DNA of 52,787 nt from an uncultured Candidatus Saccharibacteria bacterium (GTDB taxonomy: Bacteria; Patescibacteriota; Minisyncoccia; GCA-002772825), in contig CAYIGM010000002.1 in NCBI GenBank assembly GCA_964363045.1, positions 1-52,787 of the forward strand, read 5' to 3'. A program made the translations under genes and the position numbers. The notes beneath the pieces are model-generated. The model was not told the origin of the DNA. It worked only from the letters and a program-made list of their open reading frames with translations, and searched no databases. How positions within the stretch are numbered: position 1 is the first letter of the stretch; each line of letters opens with the position of its first letter. Shown in pieces: positions 1,773-52,763 of the stretch.

Positions 1773-3374
1773 TTATTTCTCAACTTTATATACAACATTT
1801 TCTCCGTCAGCCGTTTCTTCAACCAATTCATACTTAAGAGACAACTTATCCTTTAAGCCGAGAAAGCATTCTCGAGAACATTTAAAAGCGTAAGCGTAGG
1901 ATGATAAAAAGATATAATTCGGAACTAATTCCGCGTTGCCAGCTCCTGAAAATTTAGAATAGCAATTTGAAGCATCTATATTCAGAAGCCCCTCCGGAAG
2001 ACAAGAACCGATTGACCAGGCATCTGTTTTGAAAGAAACCGTATTAGGAGTAATATTGGTAAAAAAAGTTTTATTTCTATAATTTTCAAGCATTGCCAAT
2101 ATATCCGATAATTTCTTATCATTGCTGAAATTGCCGGCCCATATAAAATATTTCCATCCGATAATAACAATCGCCAACAGCATTATGATTTTAAAAATAA
2201 AATTTTCCAAAAGAAAAATGTAAAAATCTTTATCGTGTTTTATTTTTTCAATCAAACCGTAAAATAAATCACCGACGGCCATTCCCAGAAAAATAACCAG
2301 AAAAGCGTAAAAAAATAAAGGATGATTGCCAATAGTCGGCAAGAAGACAATCTGCCATATAAAAACGGCCAAAAACAGAGGAATTATAAATTTTCTGTTT
2401 TTATAAATACAGCCTCGCCTGAAAATATAAAGAATAAAAGTAAAAATACCGCCTACGGCCAGTGGTATTTTAAACAAATAAAAAGGCCTGATGGCTCCTA
2501 ATAGATAACTGACCATTGGCGCCCGTTCGTTAGAACCCCACAAAACCATATTATGCGCCTGATAGAAATTTAAAAGTTCCTTTCTGGGAGGTATGCTGAA
2601 AAATCTATTTTGCGCCGTAAGCCATATATCCTGCAAAGCGATACTCGGCGTTAAGGCTGACATATTTTGCATTATATGGATAATTGCTCCGACAGAAACA
2701 GAAAGAAAGCAAAAAAAGAATAATCTCATATTTTTTTCAAAAATACCGAATAATAATTCCGAAATCAGCATAAAGCCGGCAAGCATATAATTCGCAAACG
2801 AAGCGATAAAAAATATAAGCGGCACAATAAAATATCTCTTCGGCATATTGCCATATCTAACCCACAAATAACCGAATAATATTGGAAAACTGAGAGAATA
2901 TTGATTATGGTCAACGAGACTTAAAAATCCGCTGAAATTAACAATTAAAAAGATTGAAGAAAAAACGGCGGCAGGCAAAGAGACCGATTCGCTCAAAAAT
3001 AAAAATAAAAAAGCGACTCCGCTTAAAGAAATCAATGAATAAAAAATTCTTGACTGAAAAACATTAAACCCTATTTTTATAAGAAACCCTTGAACAGCCG
3101 ATGGTAAAGACGGATTATGTGTATAAAATATAGGCTGTGAGTTTTTTTCAAAATCAGTTGAATAATCAGGAAGAAAAAAAAGTTTGACAAATCCTTTCAG
3201 CGCAAAATTCCTTCCGGCATTATACTCCAAAATAAAATCCTCTTGAGTGCCACCTGAAGCTAAAGAAATATCTTTATAAGAAAATACGAAATTAAAAATA
3301 TAAAAAATCCCGAAAATCAGAACGAGAATTAAAAACAAATTTTTTTTATTTAATATAGATTTCGCCATAAGCAT
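1773..3374 (-). CDS. Polytopic membrane protein, distant relative of the 112-1770 / 3346-4974 family
   Basis: 533-aa ORF, highly hydrophobic. FYTHNPSLPSAVQGFLIKIGF...SLISLSG parallels YYTHYPSGYLFPLGFLMEIGF...ILISLTG of the paralogs. Its stop is 2 nt from the convergent stop of ORF 112-1770. Confidence 0.7.
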   Translation of the reverse strand: MLMAKSILNKKNLFLILVLIFGIFYIFNFVFSYKDISLASGGTQEDFILEYNAGRNFALKGFVKLFFLPDYSTDFEKNSQPIFYTHNPSLPSAVQGFLIKIGFNVFQSRIFYSLISLSGVAFLFLFLSESVSLPAAVFSSIFLIVNFSGFLSLVDHNQYSLSFPILFGYLWVRYGNMPKRYFIVPLIFFIASFANYMLAGFMLISELLFGIFEKNMRLFFFCFLSVSVGAIIHIMQNMSALTPSIALQDIWLTAQNRFFSIPPRKELLNFYQAHNMVLWGSNERAPMVSYLLGAIRPFYLFKIPLAVGGIFTFILYIFRRGCIYKNRKFIIPLFLAVFIWQIVFLPTIGNHPLFFYAFLVIFLGMAVGDLFYGLIEKIKHDKDFYIFLLENFIFKIIMLLAIVIIGWKYFIWAGNFSNDKKLSDILAMLENYRNKTFFTNITPNTVSFKTDAWSIGSCLPEGLLNIDASNCYSKFSGAGNAELVPNYIFLSSYAYAFKCSRECFLGLKDKLSLKYELVEETADGENVVYKVEK

Positions 3375-4974
3375 TGTCGGTTAAAAATTCTCTTATAATT
3401 TTTACCTCTTGGTCATTGGCAATAATAATCGGCAAAAACGGATACTGGGAATGATTTTTCAATTTTATCAAATCATCCGCCAAATCTTTTTCATTTTTAA
3501 AAGATAAAATCGGCATACCGGAATAATATTCCGAAAATGGATCTGCTTGAGGATAACGATACGAACCGGCTTCATCCATCCTGAATACCACACCATCACG
3601 GCCTTGAGCCGCAGATTTCATATCTTGTCCGAATTTTATAATTTTTTCATCAACGGCATTATTCGGCCATTGTTTAACATACGCATAAGTTCTCTCCGCT
3701 TGCTTAAACCAAAGCAAACTGATTAAAATTAAAAACGCCACTCCACCCGCTTGGAAGCTTAGCTTCCAAGCGGGAAATTTTTTTATATTTTTTAAAATTA
3801 AATAAATTAAAACTGTTGAGGACGCCAAAAGCAAAGAAATAAATGGCGCCGCCTGCCTTGCCTGGTATGGGAAATAACCGGACGAAACGAGAATAAAAGG
3901 ATAAGCAAAACCGGAAACAGCTAAAAGCCCCAGAATTTCATTTTTTGGAAAACAATAAAAATTTTCAACCGCGCGCTTTTTTAAAACAGCAAACGCGGTG
4001 AATAAAATTACGATAATAGGAATAATAAACCGCGCGCGCAAATCTGTCATATATACCCACGGCGAGAAAATCGCTCTTGTGTGCTTCTCTAAAATACCCG
4101 ACCCGGGTCCGGTATTGGCACGCGCCCGAAAGGAACCATAAATATCAAACAAAGCGTCGTGAATCCCCAAATACCATAAATTCTGCAAAAGCTGAACAAA
4201 AAACGCCAAGACGGGCGCCATGGCAAAAATCAACCATCTTTTCCATAAAAATTTTCTTGTCATTATAAGATCAAGACCGACCAGCCAAACAAAGATAAAG
4301 AAAGTAGAATCGTACGAAGAACTGGCAAGGGTAAAATATAAAAACCAGATAAGAATATTATAAAATCTCTTCTTCTTATCATCAGAAACTCTATATACCC
4401 ATATACTTAAAAATAAAATTAAAAATCTAAATAAATCATCTACGGGCTGATTGGCTAAAGAATCCGCTATTCCTAAAAACATCGTCGAACTGGCATAATA
4501 CAAGACCGACAGAAAAGCGATTGTTCGCGTTGAAACAAGCGCAAATGCCACGTACATAAACGACAACCCGGCAAGTGATATTATTATCGCCAAAAATCTA
4601 AACCAGAATCTCGCGGAAACCCCGATTTTCATTAAAATTGCATACGGCAAAAGATAGCCGGCCGGGTAATGAGTATAATAAAGTCTGTTTCCAATAAGCT
4701 CGCCGGTTCGTATGCCATGAGCGTGTTGCCTCAAGTCCGGTTCATCAAAATAACGAACCGCTTTTGAATAACCAGTCGGTATAAAAAGAAACTTACTGTA
4801 AATAAATCCGTCATTCACCCAATGTTTGGAGCTCATCATCGTCTGCGCCGAACCAAAGCCCCAATCATCCCAAACATTTTCAGGTAAAGCCTTAACACCA
4901 AGATAAATAGCCAATATTAAAATAAAAATAATAAATAAAAAATGTGGTTTTAAAATTTGCCAGATTCGTCTCAT
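3346..4974 (-). CDS. Polytopic membrane protein, paralog B of the family
   Basis: 542-aa ORF. More than half of the N-terminal ~280 residues match ORF 112-1770 by eye. Its start overlaps the stop of the upstream GT by 4 nt. Confidence 0.75.
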   Translation of the reverse strand: MRRIWQILKPHFLFIIFILILAIYLGVKALPENVWDDWGFGSAQTMMSSKHWVNDGFIYSKFLFIPTGYSKAVRYFDEPDLRQHAHGIRTGELIGNRLYYTHYPAGYLLPYAILMKIGVSARFWFRFLAIIISLAGLSFMYVAFALVSTRTIAFLSVLYYASSTMFLGIADSLANQPVDDLFRFLILFLSIWVYRVSDDKKKRFYNILIWFLYFTLASSSYDSTFFIFVWLVGLDLIMTRKFLWKRWLIFAMAPVLAFFVQLLQNLWYLGIHDALFDIYGSFRARANTGPGSGILEKHTRAIFSPWVYMTDLRARFIIPIIVILFTAFAVLKKRAVENFYCFPKNEILGLLAVSGFAYPFILVSSGYFPYQARQAAPFISLLLASSTVLIYLILKNIKKFPAWKLSFQAGGVAFLILISLLWFKQAERTYAYVKQWPNNAVDEKIIKFGQDMKSAAQGRDGVVFRMDEAGSYRYPQADPFSEYYSGMPILSFKNEKDLADDLIKLKNHSQYPFLPIIIANDQEVKIIREFLTDNAYGEIYIK

Positions 4975-18547: not shown

Positions 18548-18564
18548 CAAAGGACCCTCCTTTG
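18548..18564. repeat. Degenerate REP-like hairpin CAAAGGA-CCC-TCCTTTG
   Basis: Shares ACAAAGGAC with the REP copies at 23702 and 23771. A second hairpin follows: TTCCGCA (18567-18573) / TGCGGAA (18584-18590). Confidence 0.5.
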
Positions 18565-22971: not shown

Positions 22972-23676
22972 CTATCTTAAATTGATTAAATCTCCAACTT
23001 TCTTATTATCCATTTCCAAGGTCTCATCTTGGAAATTTAGCCACTCACTGATAAAATTGTTAAATTCTTTAAAATCAGCAAAATATTCCGGAAAAGCGCT
23101 CTTATCTAAAAGCATTGATTCTTCCCTATTCTGCCCGATATAATCAAGATAACTTGAATATTTATAATTATTCAAGTTATCTTTCGCCCCCTCTTCATCA
23201 GAAATACCCTTTTCTTTCCACTCCGAGTCAATCAACTTAATAGGGTTTAAGTGAATATAAGCGAATAGATACTTCAAATACTCATCACTATCCACATGAA
23301 CGGCTTTAAATGCTCCCTCAAAAAGCTTCCCCGTTCTTTCGTTTTTCTTATTGAAATACATTGAATAACCTGTGGATAACTTTTTCATAAATACACTAAT
23401 ACCATTTTTTACCCTTTCTTTTGCCAATATATGGAAATGATTCGGCATCAAACAGTAAACCCCAATATCAGTTAGTGTTTCTCCCTTGTTTGCCTCCCCA
23501 AAGGACTGTCCTTTGGGGACTTCCCTTATGTTGACTGGCTTTATGCTATTGCAGAAAAATAATAATTTTATAAATCTTTTTCTATCTTCCTCGTTTAAAA
23601 ATATATCCCTTTTATCATTGCCACGATTATAGATATGATAAAACTCGCCTACTGAGAAAGAAAATTTACGATACAT
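22972..23676 (-). CDS. REP-associated tyrosine transposase (RAYT), IS200/IS605 Y1 HUH superfamily
   Basis: YHIYNRGNDKRDIF, HUH motif in YCLMPNHFHIL and catalytic-Tyr block FAYIHLNPIK. REP-like palindromes lie immediately upstream. Confidence 0.8.
   Translation of the reverse strand: MYRKFSFSVGEFYHIYNRGNDKRDIFLNEEDRKRFIKLLFFCNSIKPVNIREVPKGQSFGEANKGETLTDIGVYCLMPNHFHILAKERVKNGISVFMKKLSTGYSMYFNKKNERTGKLFEGAFKAVHVDSDEYLKYLFAYIHLNPIKLIDSEWKEKGISDEEGAKDNLNNYKYSSYLDYIGQNREESMLLDKSAFPEYFADFKEFNNFISEWLNFQDETLEMDNKKVGDLINLR
23495..23519. repeat. REP-like palindrome inside the RAYT ORF (TCCCCAAAGGAC-T-GTCCTTTGGGGA)
   Basis: Perfect 25-nt palindrome, in frame, encoding PKGQSFG. Confidence 0.8.
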
Positions 23677-23681
23677 ATTTA

Positions 23682-23687
23682 ATTATA
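23682..23687 (-). promoter_or_regulatory. Candidate -10 box for the RAYT gene (leaderless)
   Basis: TATAAT on the minus strand, 5 nt before ATG 23676. The -35 position falls inside the REP copy at 23702-23720. Confidence 0.35.
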
Positions 23688-23701
23688 ATAACACATAAAA
23701 C

Positions 23702-23720
23702 ACAAAGGACAGTCCTTTGT
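23702..23720. repeat. REP-like palindrome ACAAAGGAC-A-GTCCTTTGT
   Basis: Perfect 19-nt palindrome, 26 nt upstream of the RAYT start. Confidence 0.85.
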
Positions 23721-23767
23721 ATGAGAATAAATGTGGATATCTAATATAAGACACTTTAAATACACGC

Positions 23768-23792
23768 AACACAAAGGACTGTCCTTTGTGTG
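23768..23792. repeat. REP-like palindrome AACACAAAGGAC-T-GTCCTTTGTGTT
   Basis: Perfect 25-nt palindrome. Its central base is the complement of that in copy 23702-23720, consistent with an inverted pair (REPIN-like). Confidence 0.85.
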
Positions 23793-23798
23793 TTAGAA

Positions 23799-24467
23799 TT
23801 AAAAGTTGTTGGAAAGAAGAGATTGGAGGTCGTCTGAAGTGTCCGGATTAGCCGCTATCCCTTCTTTTAGAATGGCCTTTGCTTTTGTGTCGTCTTTCAT
23901 ACCAAACTTGTATAATTCATAAAAATTACGATAAATATAGATTTTTGAAGAATCATTAACCAGCGCTTTACGAAAATTCGCTTCCGCTTTTTCATAATCT
24001 TTTAATTCATAAGTGTACAAACTGCCCAAATTGGCAAAAGAGGTTGAATTCAATGGCCTTATCACTCCCGCATACTGCCACACTTCTTCTGCCGTCTCAT
24101 AATCCCCTATTGTCTTTAAATAAACACCTAAAACAAGCCAATTATCAACAAAATCAGAGTTTTTCTTAATTTCCGCTATAATATCCTTTATTCTCAACAA
24201 GTAAGATTCTTTAACATCAACTGGCAAACTATCTTTAAAATAAAATTCCCTATCTAAATCCGGCATTTTAATATTAATTTGACCTAGATTATTATCAATA
24301 TTATTATCATTTGTCTGACTATCAATATCTCCATCATTATTTTTCAAATTCAAAGTGTCAATTTGAATTGATGGTATCGACAATTTATTTAAATCACGCC
24401 AAATATAAAAACTGGTACCGATTACAATAATTAAAATAATAGCTATAAATATATACTTATTTTTCAT
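23799..24467 (-). CDS. TPR-repeat protein with an N-terminal membrane anchor
   Basis: N-terminal TM (YIFIAIILIIVIGTSFYIW). C-terminal W..LG..Y...G.Y..A...Y..A TPR-type repeats. Confidence 0.75.
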   Translation of the reverse strand: MKNKYIFIAIILIIVIGTSFYIWRDLNKLSIPSIQIDTLNLKNNDGDIDSQTNDNNIDNNLGQINIKMPDLDREFYFKDSLPVDVKESYLLRIKDIIAEIKKNSDFVDNWLVLGVYLKTIGDYETAEEVWQYAGVIRPLNSTSFANLGSLYTYELKDYEKAEANFRKALVNDSSKIYIYRNFYELYKFGMKDDTKAKAILKEGIAANPDTSDDLQSLLSNNF

Positions 24468-24487
24468 AAAATTTTATTTTTTAATAA

Positions 24488-24508
24488 TATCAAGGACCGT
24501 CCTTGATA
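24488..24508. repeat. REP-like palindrome TATCAAGGAC-C-GTCCTTGATA
   Basis: Perfect 21-nt palindrome. Shares the core AAGGAC-N-GTCCTT with the copies at 23.5-23.8 kb. Confidence 0.85.
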
Positions 24509-24567
24509 AGGGAATACTAACAACAATAGGATAATAAATATATTTTAGCAAAATTTTGATAAAAAAC

Positions 24568-24600
24568 AATCCCTATCAAGGACCGTCCTTGATAGGGATT
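24568..24600. repeat. REP-like palindrome AATCCCTATCAAGGAC-C-GTCCTTGATAGGGATT
   Basis: Perfect 33-nt palindrome with the same core. Confidence 0.85.
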
Positions 24601-24624
24601 GTAGTTGCTCAAGCTCAACATAGC

Positions 24625-24660
24625 AAAAACCCCCAATCTCTTTCGAGAAAGGGGGTTTTT
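24625..24660 (-). terminator. Intrinsic terminator after the 1183-aa gene (bidirectional shape)
   Basis: AAAAACCCCC ... GGGGGTTTTT with an inner TCTC/GAGA extension, 61 nt downstream of the stop at 24721. Confidence 0.7.
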
Positions 24661-24720
24661 GACTAACCATCAGCCGGTTAACTAAACATTAGCTAGCCGA
24701 ACTGACACAAGAAGGTTAAA

Positions 24721-28823: not shown

Positions 28824-28849
28824 ATCCCGTCGCTCACGAGCGACGGGAT
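28824..28849 (-). terminator. GC-rich hairpin downstream of the 267-aa gene (possible terminator)
   Basis: ATCCCGTCGCT / AGCGACGGGAT, an 11-bp stem with a 4-nt loop. The following tract is A/T-rich but is not a clean U-run. Confidence 0.45.
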
Positions 28850-34433: not shown

Positions 34434-34601
34434 TTTATTAAGTTAAAATCTATAATTATTTCTATTCTCTATCATCCATCTCTATCATCTCTATATTTAT
34501 TATAACACTTCAGAGACAAGAAAGGTTACACTATTTCTATTGAGGTTGAACCTCGATAATTACTAGACTTTTGGCTTAATGTGCTATAAAATAAGGCTGT
34601 T

Positions 34602-35180
34602 ATGGCGATGTTAGAATATAATGAAATAAAAGAGAGAAAACATATAATTTTTGAAGGCGAGCCTTATGAGGTGCTTGATTCTCATGTCTTCCGCAAGCAA
34701 CAGAGAAAACCGGTAAATCAGACCAAGTTGAAAAATATGATTTCCGGCAGGGTTGTGGAGCATTCTTTTCACCAAAGCGACAAAGCGGTGGAAGCGGAAT
34801 TGGAGACCAAACAAACAAAATATTTATATTCAAATCCAAAGAAAAATGAAGTTTGGTTCTGCTATGAGAATAAACCGAGCGAACGATTCTCTCTTTCTGA
34901 AAATGTTATCGGCCAATCGCTTAAATTTCTTAAAGAGAACAGCCTAGTGAATGCGATGATTTTTGAAGACAAAATCATAGACGTAAAGCTCCCGATAAAA
35001 GTGGAGCTTAAAGTGACCGAAGCGCCACCTTCCATCAAGGGCAATACCGCCCAAGGCGGAAACAAACAAGTGACTCTGGAAACAGGCGCCAATGTAAATG
35101 TTCCCCTATTTATAAATGAGGGCGATATCATTACCATCAATACCGAAACTGGAGAATACACAGACCGAGTGAGTAAATAA
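34602..35180 (+). CDS. efp: Elongation factor P
   Basis: Aligns without gaps to the EF-P N-domain (FEGEPYEVLDSHV...TKLKNMISGRVVEHSF) and the C-terminal GNKQVTLETGANVNVPLFINEGDIITINTETGEYTDRV. Confidence 0.92.
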   Translation: MAMLEYNEIKERKHIIFEGEPYEVLDSHVFRKQQRKPVNQTKLKNMISGRVVEHSFHQSDKAVEAELETKQTKYLYSNPKKNEVWFCYENKPSERFSLSENVIGQSLKFLKENSLVNAMIFEDKIIDVKLPIKVELKVTEAPPSIKGNTAQGGNKQVTLETGANVNVPLFINEGDIITINTETGEYTDRVSK

Positions 35181-35181
35181 T

Positions 35182-35206
35182 CACTTGGGCACCGAGTGGC
35201 CAAGTG
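35182..35206. repeat. Hairpin CACTTGG-N11-CCAAGTG between convergent efp and rpsR
   Basis: 7-bp inverted repeat. The arms are identical to those of the palindromes inserted in ileS (50121-50170). Confidence 0.5.
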
Positions 35207-49238: not shown

Positions 49239-52200
49239 TTATCTCACAACTTTTATTATAAACTCCAAACCATCTAACTTCAAAGCCTCTCCGCCTTCCA
49301 CTTCCTTAAACTCAACAGCGCGCGCGTTAACAATCTTCTTAAGCTCATCCTCAAATTTCTTTACCAATTCTTGTCCGACAGAATCCGTCTTAATGAAAAC
49401 AGCAATCTCATCCTTCGGTGTCAAACCGGCCTTCTTCCTTAAATCCTGGACAAACCTAACGATATCCCTAAACCTTCCTTCGGAAACAAGTTCGGGAGTT
49501 AATTCCAAATCTAGCTTTACGTCATTTTCAATTCCGGCATCGAAACTAATCTCCTTTACATTCACCTCGTCTTTCACCAGCTCAAGTAAATCATCTTTTC
49601 CTTTTAACTTTTCGTTCTTAATTATCAATTTTTGCAGAGGCTGCCTTACTTTAATCCCCGCTTCAGCTCGCGCCTCAAGACCAAAGGAGACGATCTTCCT
49701 TATCTCCTTCATATCATAAAGAATCTCTAAATCTTTATTCGTTTTATCCACCCCGAACATACCAAGGAGATTCTCAGTTAATGATTTCTTTAACGGCCAT
49801 TCTTCCAAGTGTACGCTTTCTTTTTCACTGCTCAACAACTTATAAAGCCTTTCTGCCATAAACGGCATTAAAGGAGCCGTCACTTTAGCAAAGCCCAAGA
49901 GAATGAATTTTGTGGTCAAGATAGCGCTCTCTTTATCTTCCCCTTCGTCTTTAAATCTGTCTCTGGAACGCCTGACATACCAAGTGGAGAGATCATCCAC
50001 AAAATCAAAAATAGGCCTTGCCGCTTTATCAAGTTCATATTTATCAAGGCCCGCTGTTATTTCTTCCGTCAATTCATTAAGTCGCGCGACTATCCACCTG
50101 TCCAAAATATTTCCTATAGTCCCACTTGGCGGCGCCGCCAAGTGGGACTTGGCGGCGCCGCCGCCAAGTGAGTACATATCGTAGAAACTATACACATTCC
50201 ATAAACGCAAAATTACTTTCTTATACACTTCATCTACATTTTTTTCCGAAAAATTGATATCCTCCGCGCGTACCGCCGGTGAGGATAAAAGATAAAGCCG
50301 AAGCGCGTCAGCGCCATATTTTTTAACAATTTCCACCGGGTCGGTATAATTCTTAAGACGTTTGCTTATCTTCTGCCCGTCGAGAGCCAAGATAATGCCG
50401 TTTACAATCACATTCTTATACGCCGGCCGACCAAACAAGGCGGTAGATAATACAAGCAGTGTGTAAAACCAGCCTCGCGTCTGGTCTAGCCCTTCGGCGA
50501 TAAACTCCGCCGGGAAATTCTTTTCAAGCTCCTCTTTATTTTCAAAAGGATAATGCGCCGAGGCATAGGGCATTGAACCAGACTCAAACCAGCAATCAAA
50601 TACATAGATAATCCTCTTCATCTTACCACCGCAAGAACAGTCAAACTCCACCTTATCTATATAGGGCCGATGCAAGTCCAGTTCATAATCCTCATTATGA
50701 GGAACTGGGGTAAACTCTAGCTTTCTTAATTCTCCGGTCTCTATATAATCATCGCCCTTTTCTTCTTTCATCTTTACCGACTTTTTCACATCAGCGCCAA
50801 GAGCGCCGGCAAAGAGAAGCCAGATAGGATACTCATGACTGATAATTAAAATATTCTTACCCTGATATTTGTTTTCAATATCATACAAAAATTCAGACAC
50901 TCTGTTTTTAAGCTCTGTCAGATTCTCCCCTTTAGGCGGCGATTTTACAAACTTCTCTTCAAAAGTGTCAAAATAATTATGGTAATCAGCCGGACTTTTC
51001 CCGTCAAAAATTCCGGTATTTAATTCCCTAATTCGTTTGTCAAAAATAATTTTCTCTTTATCATAACCGATCTCTCCTGCCACTATTTCAGCCGTCTCTT
51101 TTGTCCGGATAAAATCCGAAGAAAAGATAATATCAATATTTTCACTTTTTATTTTTTGAGAAATTCCACTCGTGTCCGCCCTTCCTTTTTCCGTAAGATG
51201 GTGCGGGTTATCCACCATGGAACTCACGATATTTTTCTTATTGTGGTCTGACTCTCCATGACGCATCACGAAATATCCATTGCCTGACTTTTGAATTTTA
51301 TCTTTGATATCATCTATGGAGCCTGCGATTTCCAAGCTATCGCACTTCTCGCATTTCCACACTGGCAAAGGCGCTCCCCAGAATCTGCTTCTTGATATCG
51401 CCCAGTCTCTGGCGCCAGAAAGCCACTTTCCGAAACGGCCGTTCTTTATATGCGCCGGCACCCAATTAATCTCCTCATTATTCTTAAGAAGATTGTCTTT
51501 AATTGCCGTCACTTTCACAAACCAAGAAGAGGTCGCGTAATTCAAGAGAGGTGTATCGCACCTCCAGCAATGTGGGTAAGAGTGAACTATCTTTTTCTTG
51601 GCAAACAATTTCCCTTCGCGAGCTAAATACTTTATTATTTCAATATCAGTTTCCTGGTGATTCTCTTTCGGTTTTACAAATCTTCCGGCAAAATCCTTCA
51701 CTTCACTTCTAAAACGACCGTCACCGGTGACATGCTGAACAAAAGGAAGAGCGTATTCCATGGCGACATTCATATCGTCCTCGCCAAAAGCCGGCGCGAT
51801 ATGCACAACACCCGTTCCTTCTTCCGTTGTCACAAAATCAGCCGAATATATTTTCCAGCCGTTTTCCCGATTCTCCAAATCTCTTTTCTCTGAATAATAA
51901 TCAAAAAGCGGTTTATAACTTTTACCGGAAAGAGTGCCTCCCTTAAAGGTTTCAATTATCTCGTATTCTCCTTCAATAACAGAAAGCCTGTCTTTCGCCA
52001 AAATAATCTTCTCGCCGTCTTTTTCAATCTTCGCATATAAAATATCCGGATTCATCGCCAAAGCGACATTGCCCGGAAGAGTCCAAGGCGTCGTCGTCCA
52101 AGCGAGGACAAAAGTGCCCGGCTCATCAACGAGCTCAAATTTAGCCGTCACCGAAATATCCGTAATATCCTTATACCCTTGAGAAACTTCAAAGTTCGCG

Positions 52201-52763
52201 AGGGTCGTTTCGCAACGCGGGCAAAGGTGCATCGGTTTGTATCCCTCATACACAAGACCTTTGTCATAAAGAGTTTTAAAAACCCACCAAACAGATTCCA
52301 TATAATTCGCATCCATCGTCTTGTAATCCGCTTCCATGTCAACGAATCGTCCAATTTGAGGAATAATCTTTTTCCAATCGTTTGTATCGCGAACAACAAC
52401 ATTTTTAGCGGCTTTATTAAATTTCTCAAGCCCCAACTCTTCAATGTCACTCTTAGCTTTAAGACCAAGCTCCTTTTCAACAACATTTTCAACAGGCAGA
52501 CCATGGCAATCCCAACCCCAACGACGCGGGACGCGATATCCTTGCATTGTCTTATAGCGAGGAATTATATCTTTAATGACACTCGCCAAAATATGCCCAT
52601 AATGAGGCGGACCATTGGCAAAAGGCGGTCCATCATAGAAAACAAACTCACCTGAAGTGGAATCCTTCTTGAGAGTTTTTTCAAAAATTTTATTATCCTG
52701 CCAAAACTTTAAAATATCCTTTTCCGCTTCAGCCGGAGATTTATCTTTTAGATTATCTTCCAT
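49239..52763 (-). CDS. ileS: Isoleucine--tRNA ligase (type 2, eukaryote/Thermus-like) with an internal histidine-phosphatase domain
   Basis: PPFANGPPHYGH (HIGH), editing domain TTTPWTLPGN, WAISRSRFWG, FDCWFESGSMPYA, DQTRGWFYTL and KISKRLKN (KMSKS). Confidence 0.95.
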   Translation of the reverse strand: MEDNLKDKSPAEAEKDILKFWQDNKIFEKTLKKDSTSGEFVFYDGPPFANGPPHYGHILASVIKDIIPRYKTMQGYRVPRRWGWDCHGLPVENVVEKELGLKAKSDIEELGLEKFNKAAKNVVVRDTNDWKKIIPQIGRFVDMEADYKTMDANYMESVWWVFKTLYDKGLVYEGYKPMHLCPRCETTLANFEVSQGYKDITDISVTAKFELVDEPGTFVLAWTTTPWTLPGNVALAMNPDILYAKIEKDGEKIILAKDRLSVIEGEYEIIETFKGGTLSGKSYKPLFDYYSEKRDLENRENGWKIYSADFVTTEEGTGVVHIAPAFGEDDMNVAMEYALPFVQHVTGDGRFRSEVKDFAGRFVKPKENHQETDIEIIKYLAREGKLFAKKKIVHSYPHCWRCDTPLLNYATSSWFVKVTAIKDNLLKNNEEINWVPAHIKNGRFGKWLSGARDWAISRSRFWGAPLPVWKCEKCDSLEIAGSIDDIKDKIQKSGNGYFVMRHGESDHNKKNIVSSMVDNPHHLTEKGRADTSGISQKIKSENIDIIFSSDFIRTKETAEIVAGEIGYDKEKIIFDKRIRELNTGIFDGKSPADYHNYFDTFEEKFVKSPPKGENLTELKNRVSEFLYDIENKYQGKNILIISHEYPIWLLFAGALGADVKKSVKMKEEKGDDYIETGELRKLEFTPVPHNEDYELDLHRPYIDKVEFDCSCGGKMKRIIYVFDCWFESGSMPYASAHYPFENKEELEKNFPAEFIAEGLDQTRGWFYTLLVLSTALFGRPAYKNVIVNGIILALDGQKISKRLKNYTDPVEIVKKYGADALRLYLLSSPAVRAEDINFSEKNVDEVYKKVILRLWNVYSFYDMYSLGGGAAKSHLAAPPSGTIGNILDRWIVARLNELTEEITAGLDKYELDKAARPIFDFVDDLSTWYVRRSRDRFKDEGEDKESAILTTKFILLGFAKVTAPLMPFMAERLYKLLSSEKESVHLEEWPLKKSLTENLLGMFGVDKTNKDLEILYDMKEIRKIVSFGLEARAEAGIKVRQPLQKLIIKNEKLKGKDDLLELVKDEVNVKEISFDAGIENDVKLDLELTPELVSEGRFRDIVRFVQDLRKKAGLTPKDEIAVFIKTDSVGQELVKKFEDELKKIVNARAVEFKEVEGGEALKLDGLEFIIKVVR
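50121..50170. repeat. Tandem GC-rich palindromes inserted in frame in ileS
   Basis: CCCACTTGGCGGC|GCCGCCAAGTGGG is a perfect 26-nt palindrome at 50121-50146. A near copy ACTTGGCGGCGCCGCCGCCAAGTG follows directly. Together they encode ...LGGGAAKSHLAAPPSG. Confidence 0.8.
50682..51284 (-). other. Histidine phosphatase (PGAM/His_Phos_1-like) domain embedded in IleRS, about residues 494-694
   Basis: FVMRHGESDHN (RHG), SSDFIRTKETAEIV (second Arg), RELNTGIFDG (Glu) and LIISHEYPI (second His). Flanked by VWKCEKCDSLEIAGS and LDLHRPYIDKVEFDCSCGG, which sit about 12 aa apart in the Thermus IleRS as I recall it. Confidence 0.8.

Follow-up and report, generated by a model that had tools for sequence, protein, structure and literature searches.

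A RAYT-like gene and its private hairpins in a Patescibacteria genome: a probable sedentary REPtron-like module

Introduction

Systems that pair repetitive extragenic palindromic (REP) sequences with a REP-associated tyrosine transposase (RAYT) occur mainly in Proteobacteria with roomy genomes, with one or few enzymes per hundreds of repeats. What, then, is a RAYT-like gene surrounded by perfect palindromes doing in a streamlined genome of 0.59 Mb? The question is raised by contig CAYIGM010000002.1 of an uncultured Candidatus Saccharibacteria bacterium, positions 1-52,787 of which constitute the stretch analysed here (the window). The assembly, labelled G000 in comparisons, comprises 587,509 bp in 37 contigs (39.5% GC, 98.9% completeness). 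On the minus strand at 22972-23676 lies a gene for a 234-aa Y1 HUH protein of the RAYT-like kind (TnpA-Y1 class 2), beside the gene of a tetratricopeptide repeat (TPR) protein. An earlier note, made from the sequence of the window, had read this locus as a RAYT-type gene with two REP-like palindrome doublets.

The locus is probably a sedentary REPtron-like module, composed of a vertically inherited gene for a class-2 Y1 HUH single-stranded DNA nuclease/ligase (RAYT/TnpA-REP-like) and five private hairpins. It is neither an active REP/REPIN population nor a bounded insertion sequence (IS). The hairpins belong to a family-wide class in which the top of the stem is AGG-N5-CCT and the lower stem is lineage-specific.

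The Y1 protein

The gene was delineated from the list of open reading frames (ORFs), Pfam, NCBIfam, a motif alignment and an AlphaFold2 model. The ORF is intact and contains both blocks that the earlier note had read in it. The HUH block is NHFH (N79-H80-F81-H82), the tyrosine block is YIHLNP at residues 140-145 with the catalytic Tyr140, and the protein matches Pfam Y1_Tnp with 32.5 bits (cut-off 23). The C-terminal tail carries a Y-SS-Y motif. In 28 homologues the catalytic HUH and Tyr residues never vary, and all eight Y1 paralogs of the genome retain them: each has HUH, Y---NP and the C-terminal tail W.EK...Y.SSY.

The distinction between RAYT and IS200 TnpA is based on motifs, hidden Markov model (HMM) scores and fold. 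NCBIfam REP_Tyr_transpos matches the protein with 37 bits, and the IS200 model does not match it at E up to 0.1. For all paralogs the respective scores are 18-43 bits with REP_Tyr_transpos and at most 17 bits with transpos_IS200. As these scores are all under the NCBIfam cut-off of 80, the Y1 protein is not an equivalog of the curated REP_Tyr_transpos family. An AlphaFold2 model built on the 28 homologues (pLDDT 81, pTM 0.83) has a low-confidence loop at residues 50-60. Its top Foldseek match in the PDB is 4er8_A, the E. coli RAYT with a REP hairpin (E 5.5e-5, TM 0.64 on target), with the TnpA proteins of IS608, IS200 and ISDra2 ranking below it at E 5e-3 or worse. The Tyr motif, the HMM scores and the predicted fold support a RAYT-like rather than an IS200-like protein, in agreement with the earlier note.

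Hairpins at the locus

The core AAGGACNGTCCTT has five exact matches in the window and none in any of 100 dinucleotide-preserving shuffles. Four of the palindromes, upstream of the Y1 gene, had been pointed out in the earlier note and are exact, the last of them being slightly longer than described there (24566-24602); the fifth lies inside the ORF and was missing from that account. The proximal upstream hairpin, ACAAAGGAC-a-GTCCTTTGT at 23702-23720, has 9-bp arms and a central A; it spans the -35 position and stops 26 nt short of the Y1 ATG. It is followed on the minus strand by a T-rich run, making it terminator-like for the TPR gene. The distal member of this Y1-proximal doublet, ACACAAAGGAC-t-GTCCTTTGTGT at 23769-23791, has 11-bp arms and a central T and lies 7 nt past the TPR stop codon. 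On the other side of the TPR gene, TATCAAGGAC-c-GTCCTTGATA at 24488-24508 (10-bp arms, centre C) is 20 nt from the TPR start. The longest hairpin, ACAATCCCTATCAAGGAC-c-GTCCTTGATAGGGATTGT at 24566-24602 (18-bp arms, centre C), stands just after the terminator of the gene for an 1183-aa protein and has a T-run following it on the minus strand. The two doublets thus bracket the TPR gene at 23799-24467, as had been claimed. By score, two of the five hairpins, each with a T-rich run behind it, are terminator-like.

The fifth copy, TCCCCAAAGGAC-t-GTCCTTTGGGGA at 23495-23519, is a perfect palindrome with 12-bp arms and a central T that lies in frame in the Y1 gene and encodes PKGQSFG (codons ~53-60). 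Its centre, at codon ~56, falls in the low-confidence loop that joins helix A to the pre-HUH strand.

As single-stranded DNA, the doublet 23702/23769 with its A and T centres folds into one REPIN-like long hairpin of 21 bp (dG -23 kcal/mol, z -7.9), as the earlier note had proposed. The second doublet of that proposal, 24488/24566, consists of exact palindromes with C centres and folds as two separate hairpins.

A search of the whole assembly located the exact core AAGGAC-N-GTCCTT at these five sites, all within 1.1 kb, and nowhere else. A dispersed REP population is hence lacking for this enzyme, and the idea of an intergenically enriched one was rejected. The earlier note had named such confinement beforehand as evidence against its own proposal, and the genome-wide count found no copy beyond the 1.1 kb. 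What lies elsewhere in the genome is limited to a variant doublet on contig C29 and to further sub-families of the AGG-N5-CCT kind. A decayed copy, caaAGGACCCTCCTttg, is present in the window at 18548-18564, just past the gene of a 1301-aa protein; at the corresponding place the genome G003, of the same genus, has an intact AAGGACCGTCCTT.

The Y1 ORF also holds a second perfect palindrome of different sequence at 23146-23183, whose 15-bp arms enclose an 8-nt loop (AAGATAACTTGAATA..TATTCAAGTTATCTT). The palindrome codes for KDNLNNYKYSSYLD and spans the conserved YSSY motif. None was seen in G002 or G003 of the same genus. At another related locus (L073) a palindrome with 18-bp arms occupies the same codons (~165), and in the paralog on contig C13 the cognate hairpin directly precedes the SSY motif.

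Co-variation of gene and hairpin in related loci

More than 7,800 homologues of the Y1 protein are found in databases, the best being 60-73% identical. Those whose source is named are labelled as Patescibacteria lineages and annotated just as 'transposase'. An exhaustive search at E up to 1e-10 yielded 5,939 clusters at 50% identity, and of 41 genomes from the class, 19 possess the gene, with 1-8 copies apiece. A scan of GTDB species genomes returned more than 530 loci, from which 80 were kept as related Patescibacteria loci.

A perfect hairpin adjoins the gene in 65 of the 80 loci, on both sides in 45. Compared over the 17-nt core, upstream and downstream hairpins of one locus have an identity of 0.93 and those of shuffled partners 0.55, and the observed value was reached in none of 2000 shuffles. 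The upstream hairpin ends a median of 26 nt before the ATG (interquartile range 21-29), the same distance as in the window, and the downstream hairpin starts a median of 1 nt after the stop codon. AGG-N5-CCT forms the stem top in 131 of 149 odd-centred hairpins, as it does at the window locus (A-AGG-ACNGT-CCT-T). Perfect internal copies, centred at codons 54-64, are present in 20 loci; when up to two mismatches are allowed they are found in 24 of 64. They are always framed CAA GGN NNN NCC TTG, encoding QGxxL, and resemble their own flanking hairpins (0.92 identity) more than those of shuffled partners (0.64). A three-site layout thus extends across a very large Patescibacteria clade: a promoter hairpin ~26 nt before the ATG, which is often joined by one in frame at codon ~55 and usually by another at the stop codon.

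The relative orientation of upstream and downstream copies follows no such rule. With 21 pairs inverted and 17 direct, it obeys neither the rule of IS200 nor a strict rule of inverted REPs, and a fixed inverted orientation was rejected. The A and T centres by which the earlier note recognised an inverted pair are hence not diagnostic.

Eight enzyme-hairpin pairs in one genome

The eight Y1 paralogs of the genome, C2 being that of this locus, are pairwise 25-44% identical. A survey of perfect palindromes combined with folding of the flanks found each abutted, upstream and/or downstream, by a hairpin family of its own, and five of the families are dispersed. The C4 paralog is accompanied by CCGAYGTC-N-GACRTCGG (two local and four dispersed copies), C8 by GGAYGTC-N-GACRTCC (three local, none dispersed), C13 by CTTGGCGGCG-N-CGCCGCCAAG (five local and seven dispersed, several of them in frame in ORFs), C19 by GACCCAAAC-NNN-GTTTGGGTC (three local, one dispersed) and C21 by TCGAGGTT-N-AACCTCGA (two local, three dispersed). 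The hairpins of C12 and C14 are topped CAC-TCG-GTG and number ~13 copies in total. The C2 and C8 families are purely local. In five of the eight genes (C2, C8, C13, C14 and C19) the enzyme's own hairpin sits in the same pre-HUH loop. A pairing of protein paralogs that mirrors the hairpin classes was looked for in the identity matrix, which contains no clear pairing. Taken with the co-variation in the 80 related loci, the eight paralog-hairpin pairs argue strongly that the palindromes are the cognate hairpins of the Y1 enzyme.

Palindrome families are also represented elsewhere in the window. GC-rich palindromes of the C13 family, ACTTGGCGGCG-N-CGCCGCCAAGT, are arranged in tandem at 50118-50169, in frame in the ORF of an 1174-aa protein (49239-52763); the cognate Y1 gene, on contig C13 at 1663-2352, carries two in-frame copies. 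An intergenic hairpin of the C21 family, TTGAGGTTGAACCTCGA, is found at 34540-34556. The C21 Y1 gene itself is located at a contig start, its similarity to the paralogs stops where its own hairpin copy sits (C21:566-592), and it may be a pseudogene. A hairpin topped CAC-CGA-GTG occupies 35190-35198, at the end of the ORF 34862-35203. The ORF 3346-4974 contains the palindrome CCCGCTTGGAAGCT-T-AGCTTCCAAGCGGG at 3746-3774, from a family of four copies for which no cognate Y1 gene was identified. Another dispersed family, gcAAGGTGAGACCTTgc, has 5-6 copies on contigs C4, C7, C9, C11 and C25 without a Y1 gene of its own; its AGG-N5-CCT top places it in the same hairpin class as that of the C2 enzyme. 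AAGGTGAGACCTT recurs in G001 and G003.

A C4-family hairpin is common to the contig ends C7:21978-21998 and C36:2910-2930, and its flanks at the two places are reverse-complementary. The repeat is probably where the assembly broke, and C7 and C36 may join there. Seven intergenic hairpins with the stem core GTCGCT..AGCGAC, one of them in the window at 28824-28849 and the others across the genome, are often flanked by CCC/GGG and T-runs; they form a conserved terminator-like family.

Inheritance and hairpin turnover within the genus

The order of genes is common to G000, G002 and G003, which belong to one genus: an 1183-aa surface protein, the TPR protein, Y1, a 154-aa protein and a large surface protein. 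Identities among the three genomes are 70-72% for Y1, 69% for TPR and 78-79% for the 1183-aa protein. Judged by these sequences, the Y1 gene is sedentary and vertically inherited, having diverged as much as its neighbours. Near-identical copies of the gene were absent from the nine genomes compared, the best reaching 72% nucleotide identity, and recent transposition was rejected on this ground. Plasmid or phage carriage was likewise discarded, the 12 plasmid matches and one phage match all being distant (26-32% identity).

Alignment of the intergenic regions places the hairpins at orthologous positions in the three genomes, with the outer arms kept and the inner bases changed on both arms. For example, ATATCAAGG-AC-G-GT-CCTTGATAT in G000 corresponds to ATATCAAGG-TG-C-CA-CCTTGATAT in G002, and the hairpin at 24488-24508 has counterparts in G002 and G003 whose inner bases differ on both arms. 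The partners of a doublet match within each genome, as AAGGAC in G000, AAGGTG in G002 and AAGGGG or AAGGTG in G003. G002 retains a single hairpin of the AAGGAC type, on the Y1 stop codon. A solitary AAGGACCGTCCTT is found in both G003 and G001; that of G003 follows the large surface gene, at the site of the decayed G000 copy at 18548-18564.

The variant doublet on C29 (3604-3653) behaves in the same way. It is an inverted doublet in frame in a membrane-protein gene, with the stems ACAAAGG/CCTTTGT of the proximal hairpins in the window, and its counterparts in G003 and G002 lie at the same codons with different inner bases. The likeness of this site to the locus indicates that hairpins of the AGG-N5-CCT class are long-lived at fixed sites and change in concert. 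Elsewhere cognate hairpins are dispersed in small numbers. G001 has nine copies of AAGGTT-N-AACCTT, three at the gene and six away from it, and cognate hairpins number eight in G041 (two at the gene), six in G042 (four at the gene) and two in G043 (both at the gene). In the sister systems there are only 4-12 copies.

Promoters and the TPR neighbour

A perfect TATAAT -10 box, read from the sequence, precedes Y1 on the minus strand at 23682-23687. It is 5 nt from the ATG, which would imply a leaderless or near-leaderless mRNA, and the same box stands before Y1 in G002 and G003. The earlier note had placed the hairpin at 23702 in the -35 position of this box. That position is right; the -35 hexamer is poor, and a consensus scan did not call the promoter. 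A -10-like box stands 6-11 nt ahead of the start codon in most of 79 related loci, so that placement of a hairpin at the -35 of a leaderless-type promoter characterises the family.

The TPR gene (minus strand) encodes a membrane-anchored protein of 222 aa with a TPR_8 match at E 7.5e-9. It is a conserved neighbour of Y1, syntenic in G002 and G003 and enclosed by the two hairpin doublets. G000, G002 and G003 all conserve its extended -10 box, TGCTAAAAT at 24542-24550 on the minus strand. With this box placed between the hairpins of the distal doublet, the hairpin at 24488-24508 is probably in the 5' untranslated region (UTR) of TPR. A TPR homologue adjoins Y1 in G022 and in seven of the 80 loci, and cognate hairpins enclose it once more in L054 and L074. 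The recurrence suggests a two-gene module or an old linkage. Upstream of TPR, the 1183-aa gene has a canonical terminator at 24626-24662, read from the sequence and the intergenic alignment.

Between the hairpins of the Y1-proximal doublet, at 23732-23740 on the minus strand, is the DnaA-box-like sequence ATATCCACA, which matches TTATCCACA at eight of nine positions; G002 has the exact TTATCCACA at the same place. The general form of this box, TTATCCAC(A), is present no more than 130 nt from the ends of the Y1 gene in 18 of the 80 loci. The density of the 8-mer there is 1.12/kb as against 0.33/kb in other non-ORF DNA, a 3.4-fold difference (Poisson P ~7e-7). A DnaA domain-IV-like helix-turn-helix (HTH) in the C-terminal tail of the Y1 protein could have explained such boxes. 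It was rejected, as hhalign against 24 DnaA C-termini gave a probability of 0.1% and Pfam no match. Inside the Y1 gene, GTTATCCACAG (23370-23380) also encodes a conserved KLSTG motif. In the same genome a perfect palindrome of 68 nt with 33-bp arms lies ~110 nt downstream of dnaA (C4:10634-10701), with a TTATCCACA box at C4:10776; palindrome and box may be part of oriC.

Mechanism and alternative explanations

How such a module might work is suggested by E. coli TnpA-REP. By analogy, the enzyme would bind a hairpin extruded on single-stranded DNA and cut and rejoin the adjacent DNA; the intact catalytic motifs likewise point to cleavage and rejoining of single-stranded cognate hairpins. This activity may occasionally copy hairpins, and dispersed copies, some of them in frame in genes, are seen in sister families and sister genomes. 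It would also keep the local copies matched, while for the host the hairpins may serve, around the TPR and Y1 genes, as promoter-proximal elements and as terminators or insulators. A more elaborate scheme, which we offer tentatively and regard as doubtful, is that the promoter-proximal, in-frame and stop-codon hairpins make up a self-recognition circuit. The enzyme would act on its own gene (autoregulation or self-editing), and HUH-mediated strand exchange ('hairpin conversion') would keep the sites identical. Specificity and sites would then drift together within the genus (AAGGAC to AAGGTG to AAGGGG), so that a genome of 0.59 Mb could accommodate eight orthogonal pairs, which would insert hairpins in frame into the genes of the host.

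Several observations weigh against a REPtron-like module. The core is confined to the locus, which leaves mobility of this particular hairpin conjectural. The GTAG-like foot of classical REPs is not visible, and the flanks of the five hairpins have no tetranucleotide in common. Most relatives have a hairpin downstream of the Y1 gene and this locus has none. The NCBIfam scores are under the equivalog cut-off, and PDB sequence searches were empty, the protein and a profile of 28 sequences each finding zero relatives. The mixture of inverted and direct pairs is not obviously predicted by a strictly strand-specific enzyme. Finally, conserved position with turnover of sequence would also fit pure selection on regulatory hairpins.

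The last point leads to the rival that survives best, an unlikely one nonetheless, in which the Y1 protein is a domesticated hairpin-binding regulator. The palindromes would be above all regulatory, as an operator at the Y1 -35, a 5'-UTR hairpin, terminators or insulators around TPR and an internal mRNA or DNA site; Y1 would have been co-opted as a binder with no mobilisation, and the matching of sites would result from selection. Such a role would suit the conserved positions of the hairpins relative to promoters and gene ends (a median of 26 nt to the ATG, with the -10 box at 6-11 nt), the TPR extended -10 held between the distal-doublet hairpins in three genomes, the terminator-like scores of two hairpins and the purely local C2 and C8 families. 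However, a mere binder would have no need of the catalytic HUH and Tyr residues that are invariant in 28 homologues and all eight paralogs. Copies are also dispersed in sister families and genomes, including in frame in unrelated genes, and the internal copy is perfectly symmetric at third-codon positions, pointing to a process at the level of DNA.

Less probable again is a relic of an IS200-type insertion sequence, the hairpins being the left and right ends of a once-mobile autonomous element of ~0.8 kb, now fixed and decaying, and the extra palindromes solo ends. Most relatives do have a hairpin at both gene ends, delimiting a unit of ~750-800 bp, and in 17 of 38 loci the ends are in direct orientation. 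The distribution is patchy (19 of 41 genomes of the class, 1-8 copies each), and in G001, of the same genus, the best-matching full-length copy, at 56% identity, lies among unrelated neighbours. Yet the Tyr motif is Y---NP and not the Y---Q of IS200, and HMM scores and predicted fold favour a RAYT. No genome sampled has near-identical copies (best 72% nucleotide identity), the gene is syntenic in the genus with a divergence like that of its neighbours, and the window locus lacks a right-end hairpin. Hairpins moreover bracket the TPR neighbour and sit in frame in other genes. That the palindromes are ordinary terminators or chance inverted repeats unconnected with the Y1 gene is very improbable: T-rich runs do follow two of them, but the shuffled sequences contain no match, one copy is within coding sequence, the upstream gene already has its canonical terminator at 24626-24662 and the matching is locus-specific in 45 related loci. 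A sedentary REPtron-like module thus remains the preferred explanation.

Comparison with known systems

The locus shares with the REPtron of E. coli TnpA-REP (RayT/YafM) a Y1 HUH fold, with PDB 4ER8 as the best structural match, the Y---NP motif, an unduplicated gene and flanking cognate hairpins; in both cases several specific enzyme/hairpin pairs can coexist per genome (Nunvar 2010; Ton-Hoang 2012; Messing 2012; Corneloup 2021, PMC8266576). In contrast to E. coli TnpA-REP, with which it has ~12% identity, the window protein carries an extra C-terminal tail of 85 aa and scores under the NCBIfam equivalog cut-off. Unlike E. coli REPs, its hairpins are perfect palindromes topped by AGG-N5-CCT that lack both a GTAG foot and a bulge. 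Copies number 2-12 per genome instead of hundreds, the five exact copies of the window all being local, and the window gene has one copy in frame inside it.

The Y---NP motif is that of TnpA-Y1 class 2, the TnpA-REP-like proteins (PMC6006769, Quentin et al. 2018). Subclass 2.1, which corresponds to the Group 1 RAYTs of Bertels and the TIRYTs of De Nocera, is characterised by NH[YF]H, an FQ-type motif, Y[IV]HLNP, a median length of ~238 aa and a proximal SS tail (PMC6006769). The window protein, with NHFH, LFEG (LFQG in paralogs), YIHLNP, YSS and 234 aa, appears closest to this subclass by motif comparison only. The distal HTH or DnaA_C-like domain of subclass 2.1 was not detected in it by hhalign (probability 0.1%) or Pfam. 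No REP-like sequences were found near genes of subclass 2.1 (PMC6006769), whereas the Patescibacteria clade has cognate hairpins at both gene ends. In subclass 2.4, from Cyanobacteria and Bacteroidetes, REPs lie in frame in tnpA-REP between HuH and Y (PMC6006769), so that a cognate hairpin within the enzyme's own gene, with the reading frame intact, has a precedent. The copy in the window differs from these in that it precedes HUH, with codon (~55) and frame (CAA GGN NNN NCC TTG, QGxxL) both fixed, and is conserved in the clade and matched to the flanks. The fixed pre-HUH position and the hairpins of a 2.1-like clade are therefore without precedent.

Concentration of REPs near their own tnpA-REP rather than genome-wide is also a trait of the REPtrons Ma and Mb of Marinomonas sp. 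MWYL1 (PMC8266576), which in contrast involve protein groups 2 and 3 and GTAG-footed REPs. With IS200 (TnpA-Y1 subclass 1.1) the locus has in common a unit of ~0.7-0.8 kb, a single Y1 gene and a hairpin near each end, the upstream hairpin being able to insulate the gene from outside transcription. IS200, however, has the Y---Q motif in a protein of ~150 aa, is present in many near-identical copies per genome and has both ends on one strand. The window gene, with Y---NP, 234 aa, no duplicates and no downstream end, does not conform to IS200/IS605.

Short palindromic repeats tolerated in frame in the genes of a reduced genome are likewise found among the Rickettsia palindromic elements. These differ in their length of 100-150 bp and are not known to have a cognate enzyme gene. 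The clade described here is a very large branch of the known REP/RAYT systems; in the literature searched, no description of RAYT/REP in Patescibacteria was found beyond a mention in a KEGG annotation.

Significance

A streamlined Patescibacteria genome of 0.59 Mb retains eight RAYT-like genes, catalytically intact by motif, each with a private low-copy hairpin. The window locus is an ordinary and rather inert member of its large clade. New features are that one genome holds eight orthogonal pairs, that the pair in the window is purely local, that both arms change at orthologous positions within the genus and that hairpins recurrently bracket the TPR neighbour. That the clade bears hairpins questions the view of proteins like TnpA-Y1 subclass 2.1 as REP-less. 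The clade also constitutes a natural series of orthogonal hairpin-enzyme pairs for the choice of substrate by HUH nucleases, and it has a bearing on how repeats persist, and are tolerated within genes, in minimal genomes.

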